Positions 7,609 to 18,146 of a stretch of DNA of 64,000 bases are shown one piece after another; positions within the stretch are counted from its first letter, which is position 1, and each line of letters opens with the position of its first letter. This stretch comes from Synechococcus sp. (GTDB taxonomy: Bacteria; Cyanobacteriota; Cyanobacteriia; PCC-6307; Cyanobiaceae), in the NCBI GenBank assembly GCA_047285805.1, contig JBJBCN010000002.1, positions 1,248,001 through 1,312,000 of the forward strand, in the 5' to 3' direction. Both the position numbers and the translations under genes were made by a program. Under the pieces are notes generated by a model. The model had not been told where the DNA came from, did not search any database, and worked only from the letters and a program-made list of their open reading frames with translations.

Positions 7609-7621
7609 AACGGAGAGGGTG
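7609..7621. repeat. att direct repeat, distal copy (AACGGAGAGGGTG)
   Basis: Identical to 18060-18072, which overlaps the 3' end of tRNA-Ser; base composition shifts here. Confidence 0.85.
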
Positions 7622-7816
7622 TTTGTCGATTTCATGCTCTGACGCACCTCAGCGAACCAACACGAACTTATTTTCCGAAATCGTCGGCAAACACCCTGCT
7701 ACCATTTCGCGACAGTCCACGAACGCTTGCGAACGACCCTGAGCGACCCATCTCACGACGGAAATCGGTCTGGAGCATTTTGAGTCGTGAGTAATCAGGA
7801 AGGTTCCGCAAGGCAT

Positions 7817-7847
7817 AAAAAGGCAGAGCACCGATGAGTGCCCTGCC
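7817..7847 (-). terminator. Intrinsic terminator downstream of alpA
   Basis: Minus strand GGCAGGGCAC-TCATCG-GTGCTCTGCC followed by TTTTT. Confidence 0.65.
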
Positions 7848-7889
7848 AACAGAGAGTTCTGAGGTATTTAGGTCCCCCACCCATCGGGG

Positions 7890-8087
7890 TCATCTGGATG
7901 CCATGCGGTCTGCCATCCATTTGGTGACCTCCTGTTCGTTCCAGACGACCGTGCGGGAACCCAATTGGATCTGCTTCGGGAAGGTTCCGTCCCTCATGCG
8001 GTCATAGATGGAGGTCTTGCCCATCCCCGTCATCTGAAGCACCTCTGAGATGCGGAGGAAGCGGGGTGCAGTGACTTGCTTAGGCAT
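7890..8087 (-). CDS. AlpA-family regulator / excisionase
   Basis: FLRISEVLQMTGMGKTSIY..M..G.FPKQIQLGSRTVVW, the AlpA pattern. Confidence 0.9.
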   Translation of the reverse strand: MPKQVTAPRFLRISEVLQMTGMGKTSIYDRMRDGTFPKQIQLGSRTVVWNEQEVTKWMADRMASR

Positions 8088-8229
8088 CAGACCGACACCT
8101 CCTCTGGATCAAACAGGAAGTCGGTGAAACGTCCGCCAGTCACAACGGGTGCCGGTTCAGGTTCCTGGGGGGTGGCATCTCTTGTTTATTGTTCGTATAA
8201 GGTCACAGCTTTCTGAAGCCCTTCCCCCC

Positions 8230-8506
8230 CGTCGCCAGCACCTTCTGCTGCTGCTCCGCGAAGGTGTCGGAGATGTATTTGAGGAAGATCAATCCCAGGA
8301 CAAGATGCTTGTATTCGGCGGCATCCATCTGGGCACAGAGTTTGTCCCCTGATGCCCAGAGCACTGCCTTGAAGCCCTTGGCGAGTGGTTCCTTCTTCTT
8401 TCTTGGGTTGCTCGTCTTCGCCTAAGCGGACAGATGCCAGCAACGCATCCAGGTCGGCAGGTGCTTGGACTACGCCTTGAGCGAGAGGGACAACGGGATT
8501 TGTCAT
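8230..8506 (-). pseudogene. hsdM: Type I restriction-modification HsdM N-terminal fragment, frameshifted and truncated
   Basis: After a frameshift near 8400 the alternative frame reads AVLWASGDKLCAQMDAAEYKHLVLGLIFLKYISDTF, the HsdM_N signature; the methylase domain is absent. Confidence 0.8.
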
Positions 8507-8754
8507 TTACTTATTTGATAAGTCATGAAATACCTATGAGGGCAGATCTTTAATAATCCAAACTGGTGGCGAAGAGACGAAGGAATTTCGATTTGTCCCT
8601 GGTCAAATCATTATCCATCCGTCTTCTATGCTTAATTGTGTTGCACCGGTTTTGAGTGTTGTCCGCCACGTATGTGTCGGCTTGATTGAGAGCGATGTAA
8701 AAGCAACTGACGATCTTTCAAAGTTATTCGATATTGATACAGGTGCCCGAGTTT

Positions 8755-9219
8755 TGTTATCCCTCGACAGCACACTATTACAGGTTGGTTTGATCAGACT
8801 TGGGTTAAGTATGATCGGCGCCAAAGCGCCCGAAGCATTGCTGAAAGCTGCAGATTCAGACTTGGCTGAAATTCACGTAGCCCATTTTCAGCATTGGGAG
8901 ATCAAAGACGAAAGAATGACGATTTAAGAGCACAGAATAGAGTGTTTCAAGCACTCGAGGACATCTCAGCAGAAGTCAGAGCAGAAGCGGCGACTATCAT
9001 CGTTTAATCATGCGAAGCGGAAGATGTTAAAGACATGCGCTCATCAGAGAATCAATCGAAGCAGACACTCAGGTAAGCCAGAATACAGCGGCGGGGCCGA
9101 CGAAACTCGAAGCAATCAACAGCATCTAAAGCATAGAAAAAGTAAAATCGACAGAAACAGATGAGTCAACTCAAGCAGTATTCAATGTAGCGATGAATAT
9201 TCTAAGCTGAGATTCATAG
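8755..9219 (+). pseudogene. Decayed 3' half of an E/F-clan HEAT-repeat phycobilin lyase (MpeU/CpeF/MpeV family, most like MpeU)
   Basis: Stitched frames: LQVGLIRLGLSMIGAKAPEALLKAADSD.. / SALGDQ..VFQALEDISAEVRAEAATII* / DTQVSQNTA..KLEAINSI*SIEKVK..DESTQAVFNVAMNILS*. Two frameshifts and stops at 9005, 9127 and 9208. Confidence 0.75.
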
Positions 9220-9320
9220 GAACAACAAGAATGCAGAAAGCCAAGAAGATAATTCAAAAGGAACCGGTCACCATGGAGAGAATTAAGTCAATAACACAAT
9301 CAGAGGCGCGACCTACCAAA

Positions 9321-9337
9321 CTGATAAGAAATGGATA
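9321..9337 (+). promoter_or_regulatory. 17-bp motif CTGATAAGAAATGGATA upstream of fciA (candidate AraC-type operator)
   Basis: 16/17 identical to 12962-12978. Confidence 0.5.
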
Positions 9338-9438
9338 CGAACAAGAGAAAAAGTAATCTCTCAGCAAAATGCAAAATATTAAGCTTGTCACGCACAAGCC
9401 CAGGATAACAATAGAGTATATAAATACGGAGAAGAAGT

Positions 9439-10470
9439 TTGCGAAAAAAACGATCTCGAAATTATGTGTTCTCGGATACGCTTGAGATGGAAGAGTTTTG
9501 CAAAGCACATTTTGAGGAATATCACTCAACATCCAGCTTCGGATGCAATGTAACTCAGTTGAGCACAGGTCTTCTCGAAACAAAGACAACTTGCTCACCA
9601 ATTCAAGATGTACATCTTGAGATTTTCAACTCTAACCAAACGTTACTCTATGAGGAAGAAGCGAACACAAAGTCAGTATCATTCTGCTGGCTTGATAGAT
9701 TGAGTGCTAATGACAAGGCACCACTGACAATAATCAGTGGACACCAAATGACAAGCAATAGCATTGCAGGCTTCAACCGGATAAACAAAACAGGTGGAAA
9801 TATCTGGGATATCATTGGCGCAAATGAAAAGCTCTGCTGCATGAGCTTAAAATGGAATATATTGCAAAAGAGAATCAACAAGTTAAATGCATTTAATGCC
9901 TATGCAAGGCTTGAGGAATGCATCGGCATTGACTCAGATGATGATCCGAGCGTACAGCTCAAAGAGTTATTTAACAACCATTTTTCTGGCAAGTCATCCA
10001 CGAATACAAACTCTTTTTACGATCTAGCAATCATATTCTTAGACAACGAAGACAGTGAATCAACACATGATTTTCATCGATGTGAGTCTACAGACCTAGT
10101 AGAGGATATGGTCAAACTAATTCACGAGGATAGAGCTGGTAGGCCTCCAATAACACTTGATGAAATCACTGAATACCTCAATTCAAGTACAGACTCACTG
10201 AATAGAGCATGCCAGAGAATGTTTAATATGGGTGTGCTTGAGCTTGTCAGAAGAGTACGAATAGAACAGACCCGTAAGTTTTTTTTGAATCCACATTCCA
10301 CAATAGGACTCAAGGAATTTACAAAAAAAAGAGTAGCACTTTACTATGGCTTTAAAGACTGGAAAAAGTTTGAGATGTCTTACGCTCTATATTTCGGGGA
10401 AACTCCTAGTCAAACAATAGATCGGTCAAATAAGACTTTGTATTCATTTAACGCACGGCCTGGAGATTGA
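9439..10470 (+). CDS. fciA: AraC-family chromatic acclimation regulator FciA
   Basis: C-terminal AraC double HTH (ITLDEITEYL..YGF..YFGETPSQT); tandem with fciB next to a phycobilin lyase and unk10. Confidence 0.85.
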   Translation: MRKKRSRNYVFSDTLEMEEFCKAHFEEYHSTSSFGCNVTQLSTGLLETKTTCSPIQDVHLEIFNSNQTLLYEEEANTKSVSFCWLDRLSANDKAPLTIISGHQMTSNSIAGFNRINKTGGNIWDIIGANEKLCCMSLKWNILQKRINKLNAFNAYARLEECIGIDSDDDPSVQLKELFNNHFSGKSSTNTNSFYDLAIIFLDNEDSESTHDFHRCESTDLVEDMVKLIHEDRAGRPPITLDEITEYLNSSTDSLNRACQRMFNMGVLELVRRVRIEQTRKFFLNPHSTIGLKEFTKKRVALYYGFKDWKKFEMSYALYFGETPSQTIDRSNKTLYSFNARPGD

Positions 10471-10473
10471 TAC

Positions 10474-11439
10474 ATGAAAAAATCCATTGAATATAGTGAT
10501 CCACTAGAACTTTCTGAAGAGCTTGCAAAGCTTGGTCAGCTAACGAAAATAACGCAATTAGAAGGCGGCAGTGGTTTATATACCATGCAAGCAGCAAGTG
10601 CAAATAAAGTTGCCCTGGCGGAAATATCTGCAAACAAGACATTATTGTACGAAGGGTGGGGCAATGGGATAACTATTGATTTCAATTGGATTACACCGAA
10701 AGAAAGTAATCAAGTCACCTTTGGTTTTTGTGATGGATTTCAGATGACCAAGAATAGTCTGGCTGGGTTTGGCACCATTAATTCAGTGCCAGGTAATGCA
10801 TGGGGAAAATATGGCAGTGAATGCTCGAGTACTGGTTGCATGATTGAAAAGAAGTTCCTACTTGAATTATTAGAGAGTTGCAAAGCATATGATGGACTCG
10901 AACGACTCACTGGTGATCAAGGTCTTCATTGTAATAATAAAGCTCTAAACCAGCTTAAGCAATTATCTGCGAGAGAAGTATCGTCAGGTATTCGGGACCC
11001 ACAAAAGTATTTTGATCTGGTGATCGCATGCCTTGAAGAACCAATGAATGAGCAAAGTGGTCAGGAAAAAAGACACGTCGATGAATTGAGAGAAATTATA
11101 AATCTTGCACACAGCGAAAGCGCAAGGGAATCCCCTCTATCGTTATCAGAAGTATGCCGATATATAAATACAAGCCAAGCATCTTTGTATCGGATATGTC
11201 AGGAATACTTTGGCATGGGAATTATAGAATTGATGACACATATTAGACTAGAAGAATCCAGGAGAATCATGCTCAACCAAGAAGCGCGTCAAAAACTAAG
11301 GTTGCATTCGATTCGAGATATTGCGATTAGATATGGATTCAGACATCAAGGAAGATATGCAAGGCGCTATTATACTGCATTTGGAGAACTTCCCAGTCAA
11401 ACAATAGAAAGGTCGAGAAGATATAGATTACCAATATAG
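10474..11439 (+). CDS. fciB: AraC-family chromatic acclimation regulator FciB
   Basis: AraC HTH (LSLSEVCRYIN..SIRDIAIRYGFRHQGRYARRY..FGELPSQT); 3 bp after fciA. Confidence 0.87.
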   Translation: MKKSIEYSDPLELSEELAKLGQLTKITQLEGGSGLYTMQAASANKVALAEISANKTLLYEGWGNGITIDFNWITPKESNQVTFGFCDGFQMTKNSLAGFGTINSVPGNAWGKYGSECSSTGCMIEKKFLLELLESCKAYDGLERLTGDQGLHCNNKALNQLKQLSAREVSSGIRDPQKYFDLVIACLEEPMNEQSGQEKRHVDELREIINLAHSESARESPLSLSEVCRYINTSQASLYRICQEYFGMGIIELMTHIRLEESRRIMLNQEARQKLRLHSIRDIAIRYGFRHQGRYARRYYTAFGELPSQTIERSRRYRLPI

Positions 11440-11464
11440 GTGCCTTGCAGCCAGAGAGAATGTT

Positions 11465-12658
11465 CTACAGCTCACGTAAGACTTCCGCGCATGTCCATCG
11501 CAGTGGCTCCCACGTGGATTTTAAAAGTAGTTGTTCAATATCACTACGACATTCCATTAGACCTAGAGTTAAACATCCCCAAGTCGCAGCTATTTTTGAT
11601 TTTGCATACTGCGGAGCTGGCTCCAATAATGATTCCTTTATTATGAAAGATAGTTCTTTTAAGCCGAGTTGAGACACCAAGCAATTTACCTGATAGTGAA
11701 TACCATAATCAGAGCCATGATTTTCCCAAATAGACTTGATTGCATCAGTAACAGTTGAAGCCGGCCAACTCAATAAGGTCTTTGCAGCAAAGTACTGGCG
11801 CTCTTCATCTCTATGCTTGAGGAGATCGCAAACTTTTTCTAAATCAAGTGATGCATCATATGTCTGCATAAAACATAGATTCCGAGAATCGTCCCGCAAA
11901 ATTTGATTGATTAATATTCTTTGGGATTTAGTTTTAATTTTAGGAGTAATCTTGAACGCACTTTTAGCTCTCAACGGCATTGACACCGCTGCTTTCGAAA
12001 GACTTGACAACAGAGAAGGATCTCCAGCATCACCAATATCAATGACGGACGAACGTCTATTTATGACATTCAAATCTTTGAGATGATTTTGAAGGATATG
12101 CAATTTATCCTGGCAGTCTTCAACCCTTATTGAATAAGCTATTGATGCGCCATTAACCAAAATATTTGGATTGCTCTCTTGCTCGTGAATGATGCCAGTA
12201 CACTCATGCAACTCCAAACGAGTGAAGCATTGAATGGCGACACGCTTGAGTGCATCGGAGCCATTTTGAATAATGTTCAAAAGAGATGATTTAAACTGAG
12301 CGTCAAGTGGTATACCAAATTTAATTAGCGTGTCCACAGAATTAACAATCGTCTGCTCGTCACTACTATGCATAGCTTCATAAATGGTTGGCAGAGTACT
12401 AAGGTCGCGACGACGCCCTAGCGCTTCAATAGATTTACGACGTGTAATGGAATCGTAGATATTATTTCTATCCCCGGTAGCCGCTACAACTAATGCATCC
12501 AGAGAATCTCGTGAAGAACAAGCTCCCAACCGTGTTGCAGCTATATATTTGATGCCAGGATTATCAAGAGTATTAATGTTTTGTGAAAGCATCTCAATTG
12601 CTTGCTGTTCACTCATCCATGAGAAAAGATTATCAAATCGTTGTGAACTTGGCACCAT
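11465..12658 (-). CDS. mpeW: MpeQWYZ-family phycoerythrin-II phycobilin lyase, MpeW-type
   Basis: RFDNLF, KYIAATRLG, ITRRK..ALGRR, RRSSVIDIGDAG, HRDE.RQY; residues Y318-G319-I320, Q323, A352-K353 fit the non-isomerising type as I recall it; CA4 island context. Confidence 0.8.
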   Translation of the reverse strand: MVPSSQRFDNLFSWMSEQQAIEMLSQNINTLDNPGIKYIAATRLGACSSRDSLDALVVAATGDRNNIYDSITRRKSIEALGRRRDLSTLPTIYEAMHSSDEQTIVNSVDTLIKFGIPLDAQFKSSLLNIIQNGSDALKRVAIQCFTRLELHECTGIIHEQESNPNILVNGASIAYSIRVEDCQDKLHILQNHLKDLNVINRRSSVIDIGDAGDPSLLSSLSKAAVSMPLRAKSAFKITPKIKTKSQRILINQILRDDSRNLCFMQTYDASLDLEKVCDLLKHRDEERQYFAAKTLLSWPASTVTDAIKSIWENHGSDYGIHYQVNCLVSQLGLKELSFIIKESLLEPAPQYAKSKIAATWGCLTLGLMECRSDIEQLLLKSTWEPLRWTCAEVLREL

Positions 12659-12961
12659 GCAACATGCGTATATTCAATATTTAACAGAAAAATCAATTGA
12701 CAAGTCCAATCTGGTAAGAAGTGACCCGCGCGACGGGCAGATTGATAATTAGCGGACATAGACTTTAAGAAGAATAAACCAACATATTCGGCAAGCACAG
12801 CGGGAGCAAGTTGCCTCCGTATTCAAATCACTGTGCAACTAGTAATCGTATAACTAGATACGGCTGAACTATTTATCAAGGACAAGACCTTTTACGAAAA
12901 AGCTACATTTGACATTAAGATTGCTAACAGGGTGCTGAGCTGTCGATAGGCAAAAACAACC

Positions 12962-12999
12962 CTGATAAGAAATGGACACTTGCTGATAAGATGTGGATA
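12962..12999 (+). promoter_or_regulatory. Tandem 17-bp direct repeat with 21-bp period upstream of unk10
   Basis: CTGATAAGAAATGGACA (12962-12978) and CTGATAAGATGTGGATA (12983-12999). Confidence 0.6.
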
Positions 13000-13014
13000 T
13001 TCCGCTGATGCATC

Positions 13015-13359
13015 ATGTCGCGCGCTGAGTTTATCCGCTTTCTTCAGGTTCTAGAAGAAGACTTGTCATTCAGATCTCTTTTCAAAGAAGCTGAGCCCGA
13101 GGAGATCCTGAAGCTCGCTGATCAACATGGATTTATCTTTTCCGATGAAATAAAAGGGCGTTTTCTTAATCGATGGGCAGGGGTTTACTTCTGCCCATTT
13201 GCCAATGATGTTGGGAGGCTATGCCCCAAGATGGTGCCCGAAGGATTTAGCACTCTCCTCCACTATTCACAGACGACATGCGCAAAAGACGACAAAGTAG
13301 AACGTTTTGAATTCCGGGCTGGAGGCTATTACAAAGGAGTAGAAACTGTAGCTCGATGA
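13015..13359 (+). CDS. unk10: Nif11-like domain protein Unk10 of CA4 islands
   Basis: N-terminal Nif11-like segment (MSRAEFIRFL..EEILKLADQHGFIFS); divergent from the lyase gene in a CA4 context. Confidence 0.75.
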   Translation: MSRAEFIRFLQVLEEDLSFRSLFKEAEPEEILKLADQHGFIFSDEIKGRFLNRWAGVYFCPFANDVGRLCPKMVPEGFSTLLHYSQTTCAKDDKVERFEFRAGGYYKGVETVAR

Positions 13360-13368
13360 AGGAAACAA

Positions 13369-13548
13369 ATGAAATCAAGAAGCATCTGCTTATCCATCAG
13401 CAAACGCAACCAAGACATGGTGGATGTAATCGACGAATATGCGGACATGCTTGGTATGTCAAAGGCATGTGCCGTGTTCCACATCATCAAGGACTACAAC
13501 CGACTCAAACTCAAAGAACGCATCAGAGAACTGGAAGGTGTCTCATGA
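13369..13548 (+). CDS. 59-aa ribbon-helix-helix protein, FciC-like (not in ORF track)
   Basis: MKSRSICLSISKRNQDMVDVIDEYADMLGMSKACAVFHIIKDYNRLKLKERIRELEGVS; alternating beta-strand, helix-GMSK-helix; AAGGA upstream; 9 bp after the unk10 stop. Confidence 0.7.
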   Translation: MKSRSICLSISKRNQDMVDVIDEYADMLGMSKACAVFHIIKDYNRLKLKERIRELEGVS

Positions 13549-13977
13549 GGCAGTTTCCTTGTTACTTGCAGAGGCAATGACAGAAGTATTCTCGGCAATC
13601 TTAATAATGGCAATCATGGACTCAAGAATAAACCGAGACACAAGCACAACTGCAATTGGAATAAAGATAAGACCAAGAACGCCTAGGAGTTCGGAATATC
13701 CAGAATATGGTTGAGCAATAATCAAAGCAAAAGGAAAACAAATCACCCCCATCACCACAAGGGAGACAGCAAACATTATTAAAAGGAAATAAATTGCGCT
13801 GACAAACTTCCTTAGAACAAAGAAGTTAAATCTAATATCAGTAAATAGTATCAAGAAAAGACCCTTAAATCCAGAGGGAATCGATACAGGAGAAGGACGC
13901 TTATAGGATGCGATTGTGGTCCAAATGGCAACCACAATTCCAACTATACAAGCAATGATTGCAATGCCTTCACTCAC
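13543..13977 (-). CDS. Membrane protein, DUF4282-like
   Basis: F.D..F..F, TM helices and C-terminal RFILE....IKIAENT pattern. Confidence 0.65.
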   Translation of the reverse strand: MSEGIAIIACIVGIVVAIWTTIASYKRPSPVSIPSGFKGLFLILFTDIRFNFFVLRKFVSAIYFLLIMFAVSLVVMGVICFPFALIIAQPYSGYSELLGVLGLIFIPIAVVLVSRFILESMIAIIKIAENTSVIASASNKETAS

Positions 13978-14148
13978 AGTTAGTGAATCAAACTCTCTAG
14001 GAACCTAGGAACAAGACTGCTAGGGGGAAAAATACTACAGATTCTTGTAACAAGCAGATTAAGAAATCAATACTAAATCCTAATGAATGAATTTTTTAAT
14101 TCAAACGAAAGCACCAAGAACTCTTATATATCCGTGAAATTAAACCAT

Positions 14149-14481
14149 TTAAGGTGACGATGACCTAGCATACTTAACAAATACGATAAAGCGCAAACCA
14201 GTAATTAGAGCAGACCTTACTTTACTACTATCTAATCTCTTAATAGTGACCATAGAAGACAGAAAGAGTGCTACTAAAGATATTGAAGCGCAAACTCTAT
14301 TCGTTAAGAGGAATGGTTCTCCTTGAATCGCCGCCGAAACAGATTGAAAAGGAACCCCCCACACCAAAAAGTGAGTCACTAGCATCAATAATGGACATAA
14401 AGTCAAAAGGATTAAAGAAAAGTTTTGCATTTTAGTCGTCAAATCTTCCATAATTTTAGAAAATAGCACTTCGCATGTCAA
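14149..14481 (-). CDS. Hypothetical membrane protein (paralog of 14590-14937)
   Basis: Hydrophobic; shares KMQN and VAL.LSS.VT..RLDS.K.RSAL.T with its neighbour. Confidence 0.55.
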   Translation of the reverse strand: MTCEVLFSKIMEDLTTKMQNFSLILLTLCPLLMLVTHFLVWGVPFQSVSAAIQGEPFLLTNRVCASISLVALFLSSMVTIKRLDSSKVRSALITGLRFIVFVKYARSSSP

Positions 14482-14589
14482 GTCTATTAATTAGGTGAAA
14501 TTAGTATTCCAAAAAACGCATCAATAGTCCGAATAATTCCTGAGTTCAAATCCAATACAAAACAAGAGAAATCAAGATAATAAAGAGAT

Positions 14590-14937
14590 TTACCAATTCG
14601 CTAACGGATTAGAACTCACCTTCAAATAAAAGACAAAGTTTGCAGCACAATAAGCAGTTAGTAGAGCGGACCTTATCTTTTCACTATCCAATCTATTGAC
14701 AGTTACTATAGAAGACAATACAAGTGCCACAAAAGACATCAAGGTGATGATATAATTTGACAAGTTCATTAGTTCGATTACTTTATTGGCAACAAAAGAA
14801 TCAGGATAATGGATAATTGCGCTCCATATCACATTGTAAGAAAGTATCGTGAAAAGCACTTGAGCAATCAAAATCGCAAGCGCGCAATTTTGCATTTTCT
14901 TGCCATGATTAAGGAAATCGTACCAAATGAAATTCAC
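14590..14937 (-). CDS. Hypothetical membrane protein (paralog of 14149-14481)
   Basis: Three hydrophobic segments; motif shared with the adjacent ORF. Confidence 0.6.
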   Translation of the reverse strand: MNFIWYDFLNHGKKMQNCALAILIAQVLFTILSYNVIWSAIIHYPDSFVANKVIELMNLSNYIITLMSFVALVLSSIVTVNRLDSEKIRSALLTAYCAANFVFYLKVSSNPLANW

Positions 14938-15006
14938 GTGTCAATGCTTGCCGTTCTTGTTTAAATAAACGCAGGCACAAACAAACTAAAATATTGGGGG
15001 TGCAAT

Positions 15007-15144
15007 ATGAACGGGATATTTGATTCAGTAGAGATGAAGATGCTGGAAGAACTTTCTAAGAGAGGTGCTGTTGTCGGAAAGAAGTATTCCGATAAAAAGA
15101 AGTATCTGAAAGAACTGGTCCGTCGTCTTTACCTGAACCTCTGA
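15007..15144 (+). CDS. Small basic hypothetical protein, 45 aa (not in ORF track)
   Basis: MNGIFDSVEMKMLEELSKRGAVVGKKYSDKKKYLKELVRRLYLNL; helical and protein-like. Confidence 0.5.
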   Translation: MNGIFDSVEMKMLEELSKRGAVVGKKYSDKKKYLKELVRRLYLNL

Positions 15145-15267
15145 TTCGTTCGTGAATCACCAGTTGGTTATACGAAAATCGGTTTTTATATGAGACCCAA
15201 AGTCCAATCTATATGCGGCACCTTTCGGTCAAGCAATATCAAAATCAACTTTCCGATTACAGGTCTC

Positions 15268-15304
15268 AAAAAAAATCCCCGCAGGAAAACTGGTTCCTGT
15301 GGGG
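15268..15304 (-). terminator. Intrinsic terminator, minus strand
   Basis: CCCCACAGGAA/TTCCTGCGGGG stem (one mismatch) followed by A and T8. Confidence 0.6.
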
Positions 15305-15361
15305 TCGAATACATAGAAGATGAGGGTCGAACAACGGACAACCCTTACCTTCTCAGTGAAT

Positions 15362-15395
15362 AACAGCAGGAGTTGCTGCCCTGCTGTTTTTTTTT
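15362..15395 (+). terminator. Intrinsic terminator, plus strand (possibly bidirectional)
   Basis: AACAGCAGG/CCTGCTGTT stem running into a T tract. Confidence 0.65.
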
Positions 15396-15405
15396 GGGTC
15401 AGAAC

Positions 15406-16026
15406 TCAACCGAAACCCACACCAGAGGTTTCTGTGGTCTCCTCTTCTTGCTGTCCAAAACGGAAAGCATTTAGTTCGTCCTTGCGTCGTCTCCAACCAT
15501 GTAGGAGAGCAACTCGTTCATTCGGATAGTGCTCCAGTGATTTCTCACGGGTCTGAAGTTCGAGAAGACACTTTTCCTTTGACTGCTTCCGAAGTTCGTC
15601 CTTGCGTTGTTGGACTCGGACTTTCCACTCGTCAGTGGTTTCATCTCCCTTCTTCGTGAGGGAGGGAGCAGGAGACGGACCACCTTCCTCTCCTAACCAT
15701 TCATACCCGTCATAACGATGACCAAACTGCTTAGCAGCAAGTGTGATTGTGTCGTCTTCCCACTGCTGGGTTTCTTCGTTCCAGACCTGATAAAGTTCTT
15801 CCAACTTTTTCATAGGTGTAATACGAAGACGACTGAATATAGGAACACACTTCTCTTGGTCTTCGTCGTAAATAAACGGAAGGTGATAAGCAATAAAGTC
15901 CTGAATCTCCTCTAAGGTCATATATGGAGAACGAACCCAACGAATATCCATATGGTCGGAGTAGTCAAGGAAGTAATACTCCTTGTTGGGGTCAAAGGTT
16001 GTTTCACCAGAAATAAGTTGAGACAT
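15406..16026 (-). CDS. Hypothetical protein of the integrase module
   Basis: 206-aa ORF co-oriented with alpA and the integrase; GGAGG RBS upstream. Confidence 0.75.
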   Translation of the reverse strand: MSQLISGETTFDPNKEYYFLDYSDHMDIRWVRSPYMTLEEIQDFIAYHLPFIYDEDQEKCVPIFSRLRITPMKKLEELYQVWNEETQQWEDDTITLAAKQFGHRYDGYEWLGEEGGPSPAPSLTKKGDETTDEWKVRVQQRKDELRKQSKEKCLLELQTREKSLEHYPNERVALLHGWRRRKDELNAFRFGQQEEETTETSGVGFG

Positions 16027-16119
16027 AAGGATTCCTCCTATAAAGTGAATGAAAATATGTTTGTTCTCGGTGTTCTCTCACCGATAGGGTTTTGAGTCAG
16101 TTTATTGACTATCGATTAC

Positions 16120-16311
16120 TCAACCAAGAGCAGCACATACCTTTTGAGCACACCAATCTTCGACCTGGGACTTCACCCAGACGACAGAACGAGCGCCCAA
16201 AGGAACTTGCTTTGGAAAATCTCCCTGCTCCATTAGTCGGTAAATGGAGGATTTAGAGAGACAAGTAATTTCTTTGACATGTTTCAGTCGCAGAAAATGT
16301 GAATGGACCAT
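16120..16311 (-). CDS. AlpA-family regulator / excisionase
   Basis: FLRLKHVKEITCLSKSSIYRLM..G.FPKQVPLGARSVVW. Confidence 0.9.
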   Translation of the reverse strand: MVHSHFLRLKHVKEITCLSKSSIYRLMEQGDFPKQVPLGARSVVWVKSQVEDWCAQKVCAALG

Positions 16312-16580
16312 GTGTTTGCGTGTTTCATAAGGTTTATTGATTACAACAATCTCGGAGTTAGATTAGTCAGGTAGGGGGCGTCTGACTTAGAAGACCCTTA
16401 TCGGGTTAGTGATTATTTGATTTTGAGGCAGTCGGTCGGTTTGCTCTGTTCGTTTATCTTGACTACTATAACCCTGGGGACTCGACCCGTCGGTTCCCAG
16501 TGGACACTTTGAGCAACTAACCTTCCATTCATACCAGAAGGTCTCACGAAGTCCTACTAACTCAAATACACCTCAAATCG

Positions 16581-17876
16581 TCAGACCTTCATGCCCTGAG
16601 CAAGCAAGGCATCACACCAAGCAACCATGAACAATCTTCGTTCTTTTAGGAAGTCATGTCGGTCATATATGCCCTGAATCCGGTCCTTCACCTTCCATCC
16701 TTGTTGGAGTCGAATGACCTTCTCATCGAATCCCAGTTCCTTCTGCCCATAGGTCAGAACACAAGTCCGAACTCCATGCCCCACGAAGTCCCCCTTGTAT
16801 CCGAGGTCGATGAAGTGGTTGTTGATGGATGACGGGTTGATGTGCCTGGACTGAGTGCGAGGAGAGGCAAAGACGAACTCGGTTCCTCCATTCACCTTCT
16901 CCATCTCCCAGAGCAGGTCCTTGATGGGTTGAGTCAGAGGCACCAGGTGGTTCTTCTCTCCGTCATCCCAGGTCTTCATACGGGTCGCAGGAACCTTCCA
17001 GAGTTCCTCTTCCATATCAACCTCCTCCCACTTCATCCCTGAAATCGCACCTACCCGCAGACCAGTCATGAAGGTCAGCAAGCAAGCACCACGGGTTGAG
17101 AACTGACCATTCGGTTCGTTGCGGTCGAACACCTCAAAGAACTCAGGGAGTTGTTCCCAGAAGGGGAACGGATGGTGCTGGACCTGATGGGTCTTCTTGT
17201 CCTTGGGACTGAACACCGAACGCATCAACGGGTTCTGTCCGTCCCTTATCCATCCCTTATTGACCGCATTCTCAAAGACCCCTTTCAGGACCATCTGCTG
17301 TTTGCTTGCTGAGGAGGGTGCCTTCTTCCTGACTCTCCCCAGGTATTCGGTCATTAGTTCCCGAGTGGTCTTCCCACCTGGGTGCCTGTATTCCCAGGAG
17401 AAGTGCTCCACGGGTGTCTTCGCACCGAACTCAGGCAGAACCTGATTCCAGAGGAGGTTCCTGTATTCCCTCTTCCCCCTCTCGTTTGCCGAGGTCCAGT
17501 CAGAGAGAAAGGACTCACATGCCTGTTCCAGGGTTGGAGAGGTCGTCTTCTGAACCAGGAGTGCCTGCTGCTCTCTCTTTCTCTCCCTGGGGTCTTTGCC
17601 GTTCTCTCTGCTCCATGTCCTGATTGCGGACCATTCCTCCTTTGCCTCTCTCAGAGACCACTTCCCAGTTCCCTTCCCATAAGGACCTATTCGGACCTCA
17701 ATCCACTTCCCTCCGTTGCTGGGACTACGGGGAGGGAACCGAGTGATGCCGATAAAGGACTTCCCACCCCCCTTGCTGATTGGTTCGACGACCACATACA
17801 ACGAATCACCGCAACTCTTCTTCTGTCGTTTAGTCCCAGGGGGTAGAGCACGGACTTGGGAGTCAGTAAGAGGCAT
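16581..17876 (-). CDS. Tyrosine recombinase, P4-like integrase with N-terminal arm-binding domain
   Basis: MPLTDSQVRAL N-terminus; TGLR, RMK, HGVR, QGW, IY catalytic positions; adjacent to tRNA. Confidence 0.93.
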   Translation of the reverse strand: MPLTDSQVRALPPGTKRQKKSCGDSLYVVVEPISKGGGKSFIGITRFPPRSPSNGGKWIEVRIGPYGKGTGKWSLREAKEEWSAIRTWSRENGKDPRERKREQQALLVQKTTSPTLEQACESFLSDWTSANERGKREYRNLLWNQVLPEFGAKTPVEHFSWEYRHPGGKTTRELMTEYLGRVRKKAPSSASKQQMVLKGVFENAVNKGWIRDGQNPLMRSVFSPKDKKTHQVQHHPFPFWEQLPEFFEVFDRNEPNGQFSTRGACLLTFMTGLRVGAISGMKWEEVDMEEELWKVPATRMKTWDDGEKNHLVPLTQPIKDLLWEMEKVNGGTEFVFASPRTQSRHINPSSINNHFIDLGYKGDFVGHGVRTCVLTYGQKELGFDEKVIRLQQGWKVKDRIQGIYDRHDFLKERRLFMVAWCDALLAQGMKV

Positions 17877-17884
17877 TTCAGGAT

Positions 17885-17946
17885 TCCCCCAACACGGATA
17901 TTTTCCCCCAACACACCCCCTTTATCCCCCAACATTTCCCCCAACA
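17885..17946. repeat. Four copies of TCCCCCAACA between integrase and att (putative arm-type sites)
   Basis: Exact copies at 17885, 17904, 17925 and 17937. Confidence 0.7.
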
Positions 17947-18061
17947 CTTTTTCGGAAAACCCTGGTGTCTCATGGGACGAACCAGGACCATGAACCACTA
18001 AGAAAGTCCCTCACCGCAACGGGTTTGGGACATTCAGAGACCTTTCAGGACTTTTTCAGAA

Positions 18062-18146
18062 CGGAGAGGGTGGGATTCGAACCCACGGAAGGTTGCCCTT
18101 CAAACGATTTCGAGTCGTTCGCTTTCGACCACTCAGCCACCTCTCC
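18062..18146 (-). tRNA. tRNA-Ser(CGA)
   Basis: GGAGAGGTGGCTGAGTGGTCGAAAGCG-AACGA-CT-CGA-AA-TCGTT, long variable arm, GGTTCGAATCC, CCTCTCCG. Confidence 0.97.

Follow-up and report, generated by a model that had tools for sequence, protein, structure and literature searches.

A repeated 17-bp box in a CA4-B island

The stretch analyzed here (the window) comprises 64,000 nucleotides of a Synechococcus sp. contig and carries a genomic island for type IV chromatic acclimation (CA4) in which a short DNA element, hereafter called the box, occurs five times. The gene content of the island is that of the CA4-B type: fciA and fciB lie side by side, mpeW is opposed to them, unk10 lies downstream, and fciC is missing (Table 1). 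This arrangement is shared with the CA4-B islands described in PMC3877281 and PMC8995045, and identity to typical members is 79–97% (79–91% for mpeW and the gene at the same position). The box has the 17-bp consensus YT-GRTA-N6-GGAYA, and all five copies lie on the + strand. One copy precedes fciA, two variant copies (W1 and W2) lie on the mpeW side of the spacer between mpeW and unk10, and two exact copies (T1 and T2) form a tandem before unk10, 21 bp apart from start to start with a 4-bp spacer. The first-pass annotation of this DNA had noticed the five copies and the AraC-like spacing of the tandem and had proposed a candidate operator for FciA/FciB, with a ribbon-helix-helix (RHH) protein among those to be checked for binding. 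The copies, their orientation, and the tandem geometry were all confirmed. Our analysis indicates that the box is almost certainly a real element tied to fciAB and that it is apparently an undescribed cis-element shared by CA4-A and CA4-B islands.

Table 1. Features of the CA4-B island and of the integrative element that holds it (coordinates of the window).
Feature	Position	Strand	Remarks
Low-GC element	7610..18072	.	10.5 kb, holds the CA4-B island; 12-bp direct repeat of tRNA-Ser 3' end at 7610 and 18061
alpA gene	7890-8087		In the low-GC element
mpeU remnant	8751..9213	+	Broken 3' part; three out-of-frame tblastn pieces, 66-76% identity; stops
TAACA	9292..9296	+	Exactly 24 nt before the fciA box; 13/13 typical CA4-B
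fciA box (single)	9321..9337	+	Exact match; 10/17 columns invariant, kept in 13/13 typical CA4-B
fciA	9439..10470	+	AraC-family protein, Pfam HTH_18; neither recognition helix conserved
fciB	10474..11439	+	XylS-like AraC regulator; probable reader of the box
mpeW	11465..12658	-	Green-light phycoerythrobilin lyase gene; HEAT/CpeY family
Putative weak extended -10 of mpeW	12678..12686	-	TG-T-TAAATA; 15/15 CA4-B have CTGT(T/A)A here
W1, variant box	12711..12727	+	A-half intact, B-half GACCY; 12/17 columns invariant in 13 islands
W2, variant box	12742..12758	+	Both halves present, linker altered; 11/17 columns invariant
T1, distal tandem box	12962..12978	+	Exact; 14/17 columns invariant
T2, proximal tandem box	12983..12999	+	Exact; holds the putative extended -10 of unk10
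Putative extended -10 of unk10	12984-12992	+	TG-A-TAAGAT, inside T2; TGnTAnnAT in 15/15 CA4-B
unk10	13015..13359	+	Pfam Nif11-domain gene
59-aa ORF 3' of unk10	13369..13548	+	No counterpart in the other CA4 islands searched; discounted as reader
alpA gene	16120-16311		In the low-GC element
Tyrosine integrase gene	16581-17876		In the low-GC element

The exact copies stand out in the 2.37-Mb genome of the window (G000). Sites with no more than one mismatch are confined to the fciA box, T1, and T2; one coding site has two mismatches. The first-pass annotation had not noticed the motif elsewhere in the window. Within the 4.2-kb island, the commonest gapped 14-letter word of box shape has three occurrences, whereas none of 300 dinucleotide shuffles gave more than two. 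W1 and W2 have four mismatches each and low matrix scores (2–4 and 10–14 bits, respectively), yet their invariant columns (12 and 11 of 17) compare with 18% for the remainder of the spacer. The window count at a tolerance of three mismatches (3 versus 1.8 expected) is not significant alone, and the weight of the case rests on exactness, placement, and conservation. Over 25 distinct sites the box holds 26.6 bits of information in an asymmetric arrangement, GRTA-N6-GGAYA, whose second half (B-half) reads GGATA in 20 and GGACA in 5; GGCTA is found in locus L161 and in W2 of L045. A palindromic or Fur-like reading of the box was rejected on sequence.

Conservation of the box in CA4-A and CA4-B islands

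We searched 401 genomes of the family for FciB and obtained matches in 37, of which 33, including G000, have an intact fciB adjoining fciA. The locus set comprised 13 kb around fciB in each of the 36 other genomes with a match (G-numbers denote such genomes, L-numbers single loci), together with L001, whose canonical CA4-B island comes from a contig filed in a non-cyanobacterial bin, probably through misbinning. These loci fell into 13 typical CA4-B islands (the window, L037–L047, and L001), 2 divergent CA4-B islands (L048 and L049), 19 CA4-A islands (L050–L068), and 4 broken or distant loci (L069–L072) that served only as controls and stand outside the counts, as do L002–L006, which lie on the same contigs as loci already counted. 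The FciA and FciB regulators of CA4-A islands are about 50% identical to those of CA4-B islands.

All five boxes are present in 13/13 typical CA4-B islands, and 10–14 of the 17 columns are invariant at each site, compared with 18–25% of the flanking spacer. The 21-bp period of T1 and T2 is found in these 13 islands and in three metagenome loci (L157, L158, and L161). The two divergent islands have a strong T2, weaker upstream copies at 20/21-bp steps (20 bp from T1 to T2), and no site before fciA. CA4-A islands carry a single copy, located between fciB and fciC and reversed relative to fciC, in 19 of 19 cases. In each of these the box is followed after exactly 6 nt by a -10-like TAnnAT, and the fciC ATG lies 50–64 nt further. 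Neither fciA nor unk10 is preceded by a box in CA4-A (best score ≤0.9 bits in 19/19), and none lies before mpeZ in the 17 loci that have this gene (≤-3.3 bits in 17/17). The proposal that the motif is the cis-element of CA4 is supported by its conservation in both island types and by its confinement to the island, with the amendment that the CA4-A copy sits on the fciC(-mpeZ) promoter instead of before fciA or unk10.

Motif discovery and matrix searches gave the same picture. Unseeded expectation maximization, run on spacers from 16 non-redundant CA4-A islands, returned TTGaTAAGAAnnGGATA as the best 17-mer, with a log-likelihood of 189.7 versus 51.5–57.6 in three shuffles. A matrix built from CA4-B sites only ranked the PfciC box first among about 26,000 positions in 19/19 CA4-A loci. 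Conversely, a CA4-A-only matrix placed T1, T2, W1, and W2 in the top nine positions of each locus in 16/16 CA4-B loci, and in a scan of G000 it ranked the fciA box, T1, and T2 first genome-wide (24.8, 22.7, and 19.6 bits; next 15.0), with W2 sixth. Ten metagenome loci, some of them near-copies of genomes already counted, were also inspected. Two (L159 and L165) lack the relevant spacer and were set aside; of the other eight, six have full boxes and two (L160 and L162) have a 5'-degenerate fciA site. L161 keeps full boxes although its FciB is only 72% identical. Among the 13 typical islands, only the window has a 7-bp duplication (9360–9377) in the stretch from the fciA box to the start of fciA.

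Decay of the box where regulators are lost

Ten genomes without an island (L103–L112) have retained a CA4-B-type unk10, which directly adjoins mpeU in nine. Both boxes are kept in none of the ten: the GG of the T2 B-half is lost in 10/10, whereas the TG-n-TAnnnT inside T2 is retained in 8/10. Island and island-less loci interleave on the unk10 tree (from which L112, a partial gene, was dropped) and force at least three label changes, which suggests that the box decayed repeatedly, after loss of the island. A similar pattern was found at six fciC loci lacking an intact fciB. None has an intact box; in three, the decayed box is still in its place and the -10 has been kept. These counts exclude seven A-type unk10 loci that lack fciC (L114–L116, L118–L120, and L122). 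At single loci, L065 has a stop at codon 122 of fciA, an intact fciB, and a perfect box, and L069 has a frameshifted fciB and a change in one invariant box base. Because the box decays where fciAB is lost or fciB is broken, selection on the box appears to track fciAB. The overlapping -10 elements usually stay and would thus be under separate selection, which supports their identification as real promoters.

The decayed tandem boxes in island-less genomes of pigment type 3c suggest that 3c, the blue-specialist type, was often derived from 3dB through loss of the island. PMC8995045 draws the opposite direction for the evolution of 3c and 3dB.

FciB as the probable reader

The box is very probably read by one or both of the AraC-family proteins encoded next to it, and FciB is the probable reader, given that its recognition helices and its B-box Gly-Arg pair are constant and those of FciA are not. 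The FciB helices (QASLYR and GF.H.GR..RRY) are fixed in both island types, and Q235, A236, and S237 in the first and H291, G293, R294, R297, and R298 in the second are invariant in 34/34 sequences. At the positions of the FciB Gly and Arg, the commonest residue of FciA accounts for only 12/33 and 13/34 sequences.

FciB also resembles XylS more than FciA does (median 37 versus 9 bits; profile probability 97.9 versus 74.2); its best NCBIfam matches, AndR, EutR, and FeaR, fall below their cut-offs. In the Pm promoter of pWW0 the two XylS operators have a period of 21 bp; the distal operator, CTTGCAAGAAGCGGATA, is identical to the commonest form of T1 at 14 of 17 positions. XylS sites have the form TGCA-N6-GGNTA (PMC4225500, PMC5481539, PMC1360089), and XylS contacts the B-box with G295 and R296 and the A-box with R242 and N246 (bioRxiv 10.1101/400788). 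G295 and R296 correspond to G293 and R294 of FciB (34/34), whereas R242 and N246 are replaced by A236 and R240. This combination of a kept Gly-Arg pair and changed A-box residues matches a box that has kept its B-box and changed its A-box from TGCA to GRTA.

With the sites of XylS and BenR at Pm and Pben, the box thus shares the layout of an A-box, 6 bp, and a B-box, the GGNTA B-box (GGATA), the 21-bp direct repeats, and a linked regulator that has the B-box Gly-Arg in its second recognition helix. The GRTA A-box sets it apart, so it is not a XylS site proper. The placement differs as well. XylS activates at Pm from a tandem whose proximal repeat is forward and overlaps the -35 (class II), whereas 15 nt separate the end of T2 from the unk10 ATG and the putative -10 is inside T2, such that the tandem would cover the unk10 core promoter; at the lyase promoters, the sites lie in reverse. 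A further difference is the participation of a second paralogue, FciA, with degenerate helices. CA4-A and CA4-B share one box, which likely works like a XylS-type operator. The earlier proposal of an AraC-type operator for the island regulators is strongly supported in this form by conservation, decay, island confinement, and likeness to the XylS operator, with FciB as the likely reader in place of FciA or the 59-aa ORF, which gave no RHH match and had no counterpart among the 37 other loci.

The analogy to AraC and RhaR-RhaS, drawn in the first-pass annotation and by Humily 2013, extends to the tandem pair of AraC-family genes and to 17-bp half-sites with a 21-bp period, as in AraC. In contrast to RhaR and RhaS, only one partner seems to read DNA, and CA4-A has no box before fciAB, which argues against a RhaR-type cascade. 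Fold searches with the predicted structures of FciA and FciB (pLDDT 83) returned full-length AraC proteins, among them CuxR and ToxT, and each of the two likely has an effector/dimerization domain of the cupin type, although no family is recognized there by sequence. In these models the N-termini align with the cupin domains of CuxR, ToxT, and Rns, although they have been described as unlike any known protein. Conserved Cys, Trp, and aromatic residues are numerous in them and could make up a ligand pocket.

Promoter placement and a model for opposite light responses

Promoters were assigned by sequence, with -10 hexamers taken as -12 to -7; a sigma-70 scan performed at chance (16 versus 11.4 ± 3.3) and was not used. 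On this basis the CA4-A box would span -35 to -19 of PfciC, T1 about -37 to -21 and T2 about -16 to +1 of Punk10, and the two reversed sites W1 and W2 about -56 to -40 and -87 to -71 of PmpeW. The gaps from box to -10 are 6 nt in CA4-A, 27 and 58 nt in typical CA4-B, and 27, 48, and 68 nt in L048 and L049, and thus lie on one helical face.

These positions suggest a model in which each box would be the target of a single DNA-binding domain of FciB, with helix 3 on GRTA and helix 6 on GGAYA, 11 bp apart, and tandem boxes 21 bp apart would take a FciB dimer. In green light, bound FciB would cover PfciC-mpeZ in CA4-A and Punk10 in CA4-B and shut both, and from the reversed upstream sites W1 and W2 it would activate the weak PmpeW in the manner of AraC-family sites of class I. 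Under blue light, FciA, with its degenerate helices, would neutralize FciB by pairing or competition; mpeZ and unk10 would be released and mpeW silenced. The position of the box on each promoter would set the sign, such that CA4-A and CA4-B switch in opposite light. FciB and this positional rule would explain why mpeZ responds to blue light and mpeW to green light under the same two regulators. The box, its conservation and placement, its decay without fciAB, its likeness to the XylS site, and the helix contrast between FciB and FciA are observations, whereas binding, start sites, signs, and the role of FciA are inferences; we lean moderately toward the model as a whole.

Published expression data are consistent with these signs: mpeZ is 6.7–333 times higher in blue light and mpeW 35.9–1150 times higher in green light (PMC3877281). 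A strain lacking fciAB is blue-locked, from which the authors deduce repression in green light (PMC3877281). MarA and SoxS provide a precedent for control by position, inasmuch as one asymmetric AraC-family site activates when it lies in reverse upstream of the -35 (class I) and represses when it lies over the spacer, as at pbpG (PMC12052159). The CA4 sites differ in sequence, FciB has an N-terminal cupin-type domain, and W1 lies closer to the promoter than the class I window.

By other accounts, fciA mutants are reportedly green-locked and fciB mutants blue-locked, and only island genes are said to respond. Control of CA4 is reportedly post-transcriptional. All of these traits fit FciB binding in green light, with FciA as its antagonist in blue.

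Several points weigh against this interpretation. The genomes are akin to one another, so that the counts given above overstate independence. A degenerate pattern of the box matches 33/33 genomes with intact fciB and 24/368 others (4 at unk10 remnants), and the first of these rates is partly circular because the pattern was written from these islands. Four near-identical island-less genomes (L104–L107) still hold an intact T1, and the contrast between L065 and L069 is a single-case, anecdotal one. The blue-locked strain without fciAB also lacks mpeY (PMC9705338), which makes it a weaker proof of repression. Activation of mpeW is the weakest arm of the model: the sites on that side are the poorest matches, with W1 lacking the B-half and W2 a changed linker; the center of W1 (-48) falls outside the class I window of -56 to -85 given in PMC12052159, although that of W2 (-79) falls inside; and the mpeW -10 is weak and without its last T in most islands. 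The model gives no explanation for the TAACA that precedes the fciA box by 24 nt.

This TAACA also occurs in 4/6 metagenome loci, with TAGCA in a fifth, and a TWACA (12682–12686) lies 24 nt before W1 in 13/13 typical islands, within the + strand reading of the mpeW -10. Its possible roles are those of a rightward -10, which would place the box in the leader, of a weak leftward promoter (antisense to mpeU in canonical islands), or of a contact for a second protein. The fciA box is absent in L048, L049, and CA4-A, and autoregulation of fciAB, which had been proposed from the window, is thus possible in typical CA4-B islands only.

A last difficulty concerns unk10 of CA4-A, which is reportedly blue-induced and FciAB-dependent; having no box, it needs a relay, perhaps FciC.

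Alternative explanations

Among other readers of the box, FciA or a FciA-FciB heterodimer in which both proteins read DNA would bind it and activate fciC-mpeZ and unk10 in blue light and repress mpeW. FciA does retain a modelled, folded AraC-type C-terminal domain, the divergent 3' half of W1 (GACCY) could be the site of a second protein, and the reported fciA-mutant phenotype would also suit an activator. We nevertheless regard this as improbable. The base-facing helix positions of FciA vary freely while the box is constant, a reversed box in the CA4-A spacer and a T2 over the -10 are poor places for an AraC-type activator, L065 retains the box despite its fciA stop, and the strain without fciAB is locked in the blue state (PMC3877281).

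It is also conceivable that FciB acts as an AraC-like light switch that is bound in both lights and alternates between adjacent sites and a loop that joins W2/W1 with T1/T2, such that mpeW induction would be relief from a blue-light loop instead of class I activation. Typical CA4-B islands do have several sites in the same orientation at distances of about 220 bp, which would fit such a loop, and AraC is the precedent (mentioned in PMC4225500). The spacing from W2 to T1, however, is 205, 217–220, or 224–226 bp across 16 loci, out of helical phase; CA4-A has one site only, and L048 and L049 have a 145-bp spacer and no W2. The looping that had been suggested for this island thus finds no support in the spacing, and we consider it quite improbable.

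Very improbable is the notion that no regulator is involved and the box is an RNA polymerase promoter element (TG-n-TAAGA with a downstream GGATA) for unk10 and fciA mRNAs and, in CA4-A, for an antisense RNA into fciB. Every box does begin with TG(A/G)TA and T2 contains the extended -10, but T1 and all CA4-A boxes have A in place of the nearly obligatory T at the last -10 position, W1 and W2 would point at nothing near, and it is the GG half that decays with loss of fciAB while the -10 half stays.

We judge it highly unlikely that a host response regulator of the OmpR/PhoB type recognizes GATA repeats at 11-bp steps, with FciA and FciB upstream. GATA or GAYA recurs at steps of 10–11 bp, and CcaR and RcaC set a precedent, in that a short repeat (the G-box in CA2 and the L-box in CA3) is the cis-element of chromatic acclimation and RcaC activates some promoters and represses others (PMC5737509). 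Those proteins are phosphorylated response regulators that act after cyanobacteriochromes, whereas the CA4 box is confined to an island with AraC-family genes. Its decay tracks fciAB, the host genome has no other strong site, and unexplained off-island matches (20/368 genomes) occur at the rate of the reversed control pattern (about 28/401, counted by eye). Barely credible is autoregulation by the RHH protein FciC, or by the 59-aa ORF, as readers of the box: the CA4-A box does lie on the fciC promoter and an exact box lies before a second fciC-like gene in G277, but fciC was found in 0/13 other CA4-B genomes, which carry most boxes, it remains with a decayed or no box in 6/6 remnants lacking fciAB, the box is not palindromic, and the ORF is not conserved.

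Prior descriptions and significance

We found no description of a CA4 operator in the searchable literature, a scope beyond which lie Sanfilippo 2016/2019, Grebert 2021, supplements, and theses that may bear on novelty. Grebert 2022 (PMC8995045) calls the regulatory elements of CA4 "still unidentified", Dufour 2024 (PMC10904595) states that fciC may explain the opposite responses, a tentative view also found in PMC3877281, and the light sensor is described as unknown in PMC11559484. The accessible text of a 2026 preprint (10.64898/2026.10.21.760676) lists coding sequences only, with no occurrence of "promoter". CA4 cells make up >40% of marine Synechococcus (PMC10904595). A defined 17-mer, a candidate reader with a candidate residue (FciB R294), and a rule by which position sets sign make questions about CA4 directly testable, and in metagenomes the box can serve to tell functional islands from dead ones.

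Genomic context and boxes outside the known island genes

CA4-B islands are said always to lie between mpeU and cpeZ in the phycobilisome region (PMC3877281, PMC8995045). The island of the window differs: it resides in an integrative element at tRNA-Ser on contig C2, whereas the phycobilisome genes are on contig C3, and the broken mpeU remnant was carried along from a phycobilisome region. Neither fciB nor unk10 was found in 29 same-genus genomes. This setting suggests, as a direct sign, that CA4-B is mobile, and the boxes have travelled with the element intact. At 14149–14937, the element also holds a DUF4282 gene and two related membrane ORFs of about 110 aa (75% alike over 88 nt); an Rfam scan of the window returned tRNA only. 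Elsewhere in this genome, a remnant CA4-A island (G000:C2:781193–781990) has unk10 and fciC back to back, no fciAB, and no box, so that by gene content the genome holds parts of both island types.

Exact off-island matches number 4 in the 33 fciB genomes, near background, and give no sign of a conserved regulon outside the island. A few individual cases deserve mention. In L186, L187, and L188, a T2-like box (18.7, 12.6, and 6.5 bits) with an embedded extended -10 lies 86–108 nt before mpeQ. It occurs in the divergent CA4-B lineage and, weakly, at the borrowed mpeQ of the window genome (G000:C2:194367), and is absent in 10 typical CA4-B genomes. A general mpeQ/mpeY box was rejected, as it was found in 3/13 CA4-B (G104, G023, and G000), 0/9 island-less, and 0/7 CA4-A genomes examined. 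If functional, the mpeQ box would predict green-light repression of mpeQ in those genomes. Exact boxes lie 137–143 nt before orthologous LysR genes of the CA4-A genomes G277 and G374 (L131 and L132), a possible lineage-specific target; the box was found at 2/24 homologue loci scored (2 of the 5 closest) and is absent at the homologues in G390, G358, and G000.

It is tempting to speculate that a single operator and a reader/anti-reader pair of AraC paralogues run CA4 as a whole. FciB would bind the box, a pseudo-DNA-binding FciA would switch FciB off in blue light, and the light response would have been inverted between CA4-A and CA4-B by moving the box from atop the promoter to two helical turns upstream. 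The reach of the box would go further than the island genes known so far, to mpeQ in one CA4-B lineage and to a LysR gene in two CA4-A genomes, and together with TAACA it might drive antisense transcription into mpeU in green light, which would hint at the unexplained chromophore switch at Cys-139/Cys-140. Taken with all of its parts, this proposal is rather unlikely.

A few minor observations complete the survey. In L043 and L001 the usual mpeW ATG is altered, and a neighboring GTG would have to serve as the start. The distant single AraC genes of G354 and G378 have other helices and no box. The exact box of G277 mentioned above (L124:2065; G277:C1:674664) immediately precedes a divergent 234-aa ORF and lies 248 bp before the second fciC-like gene.

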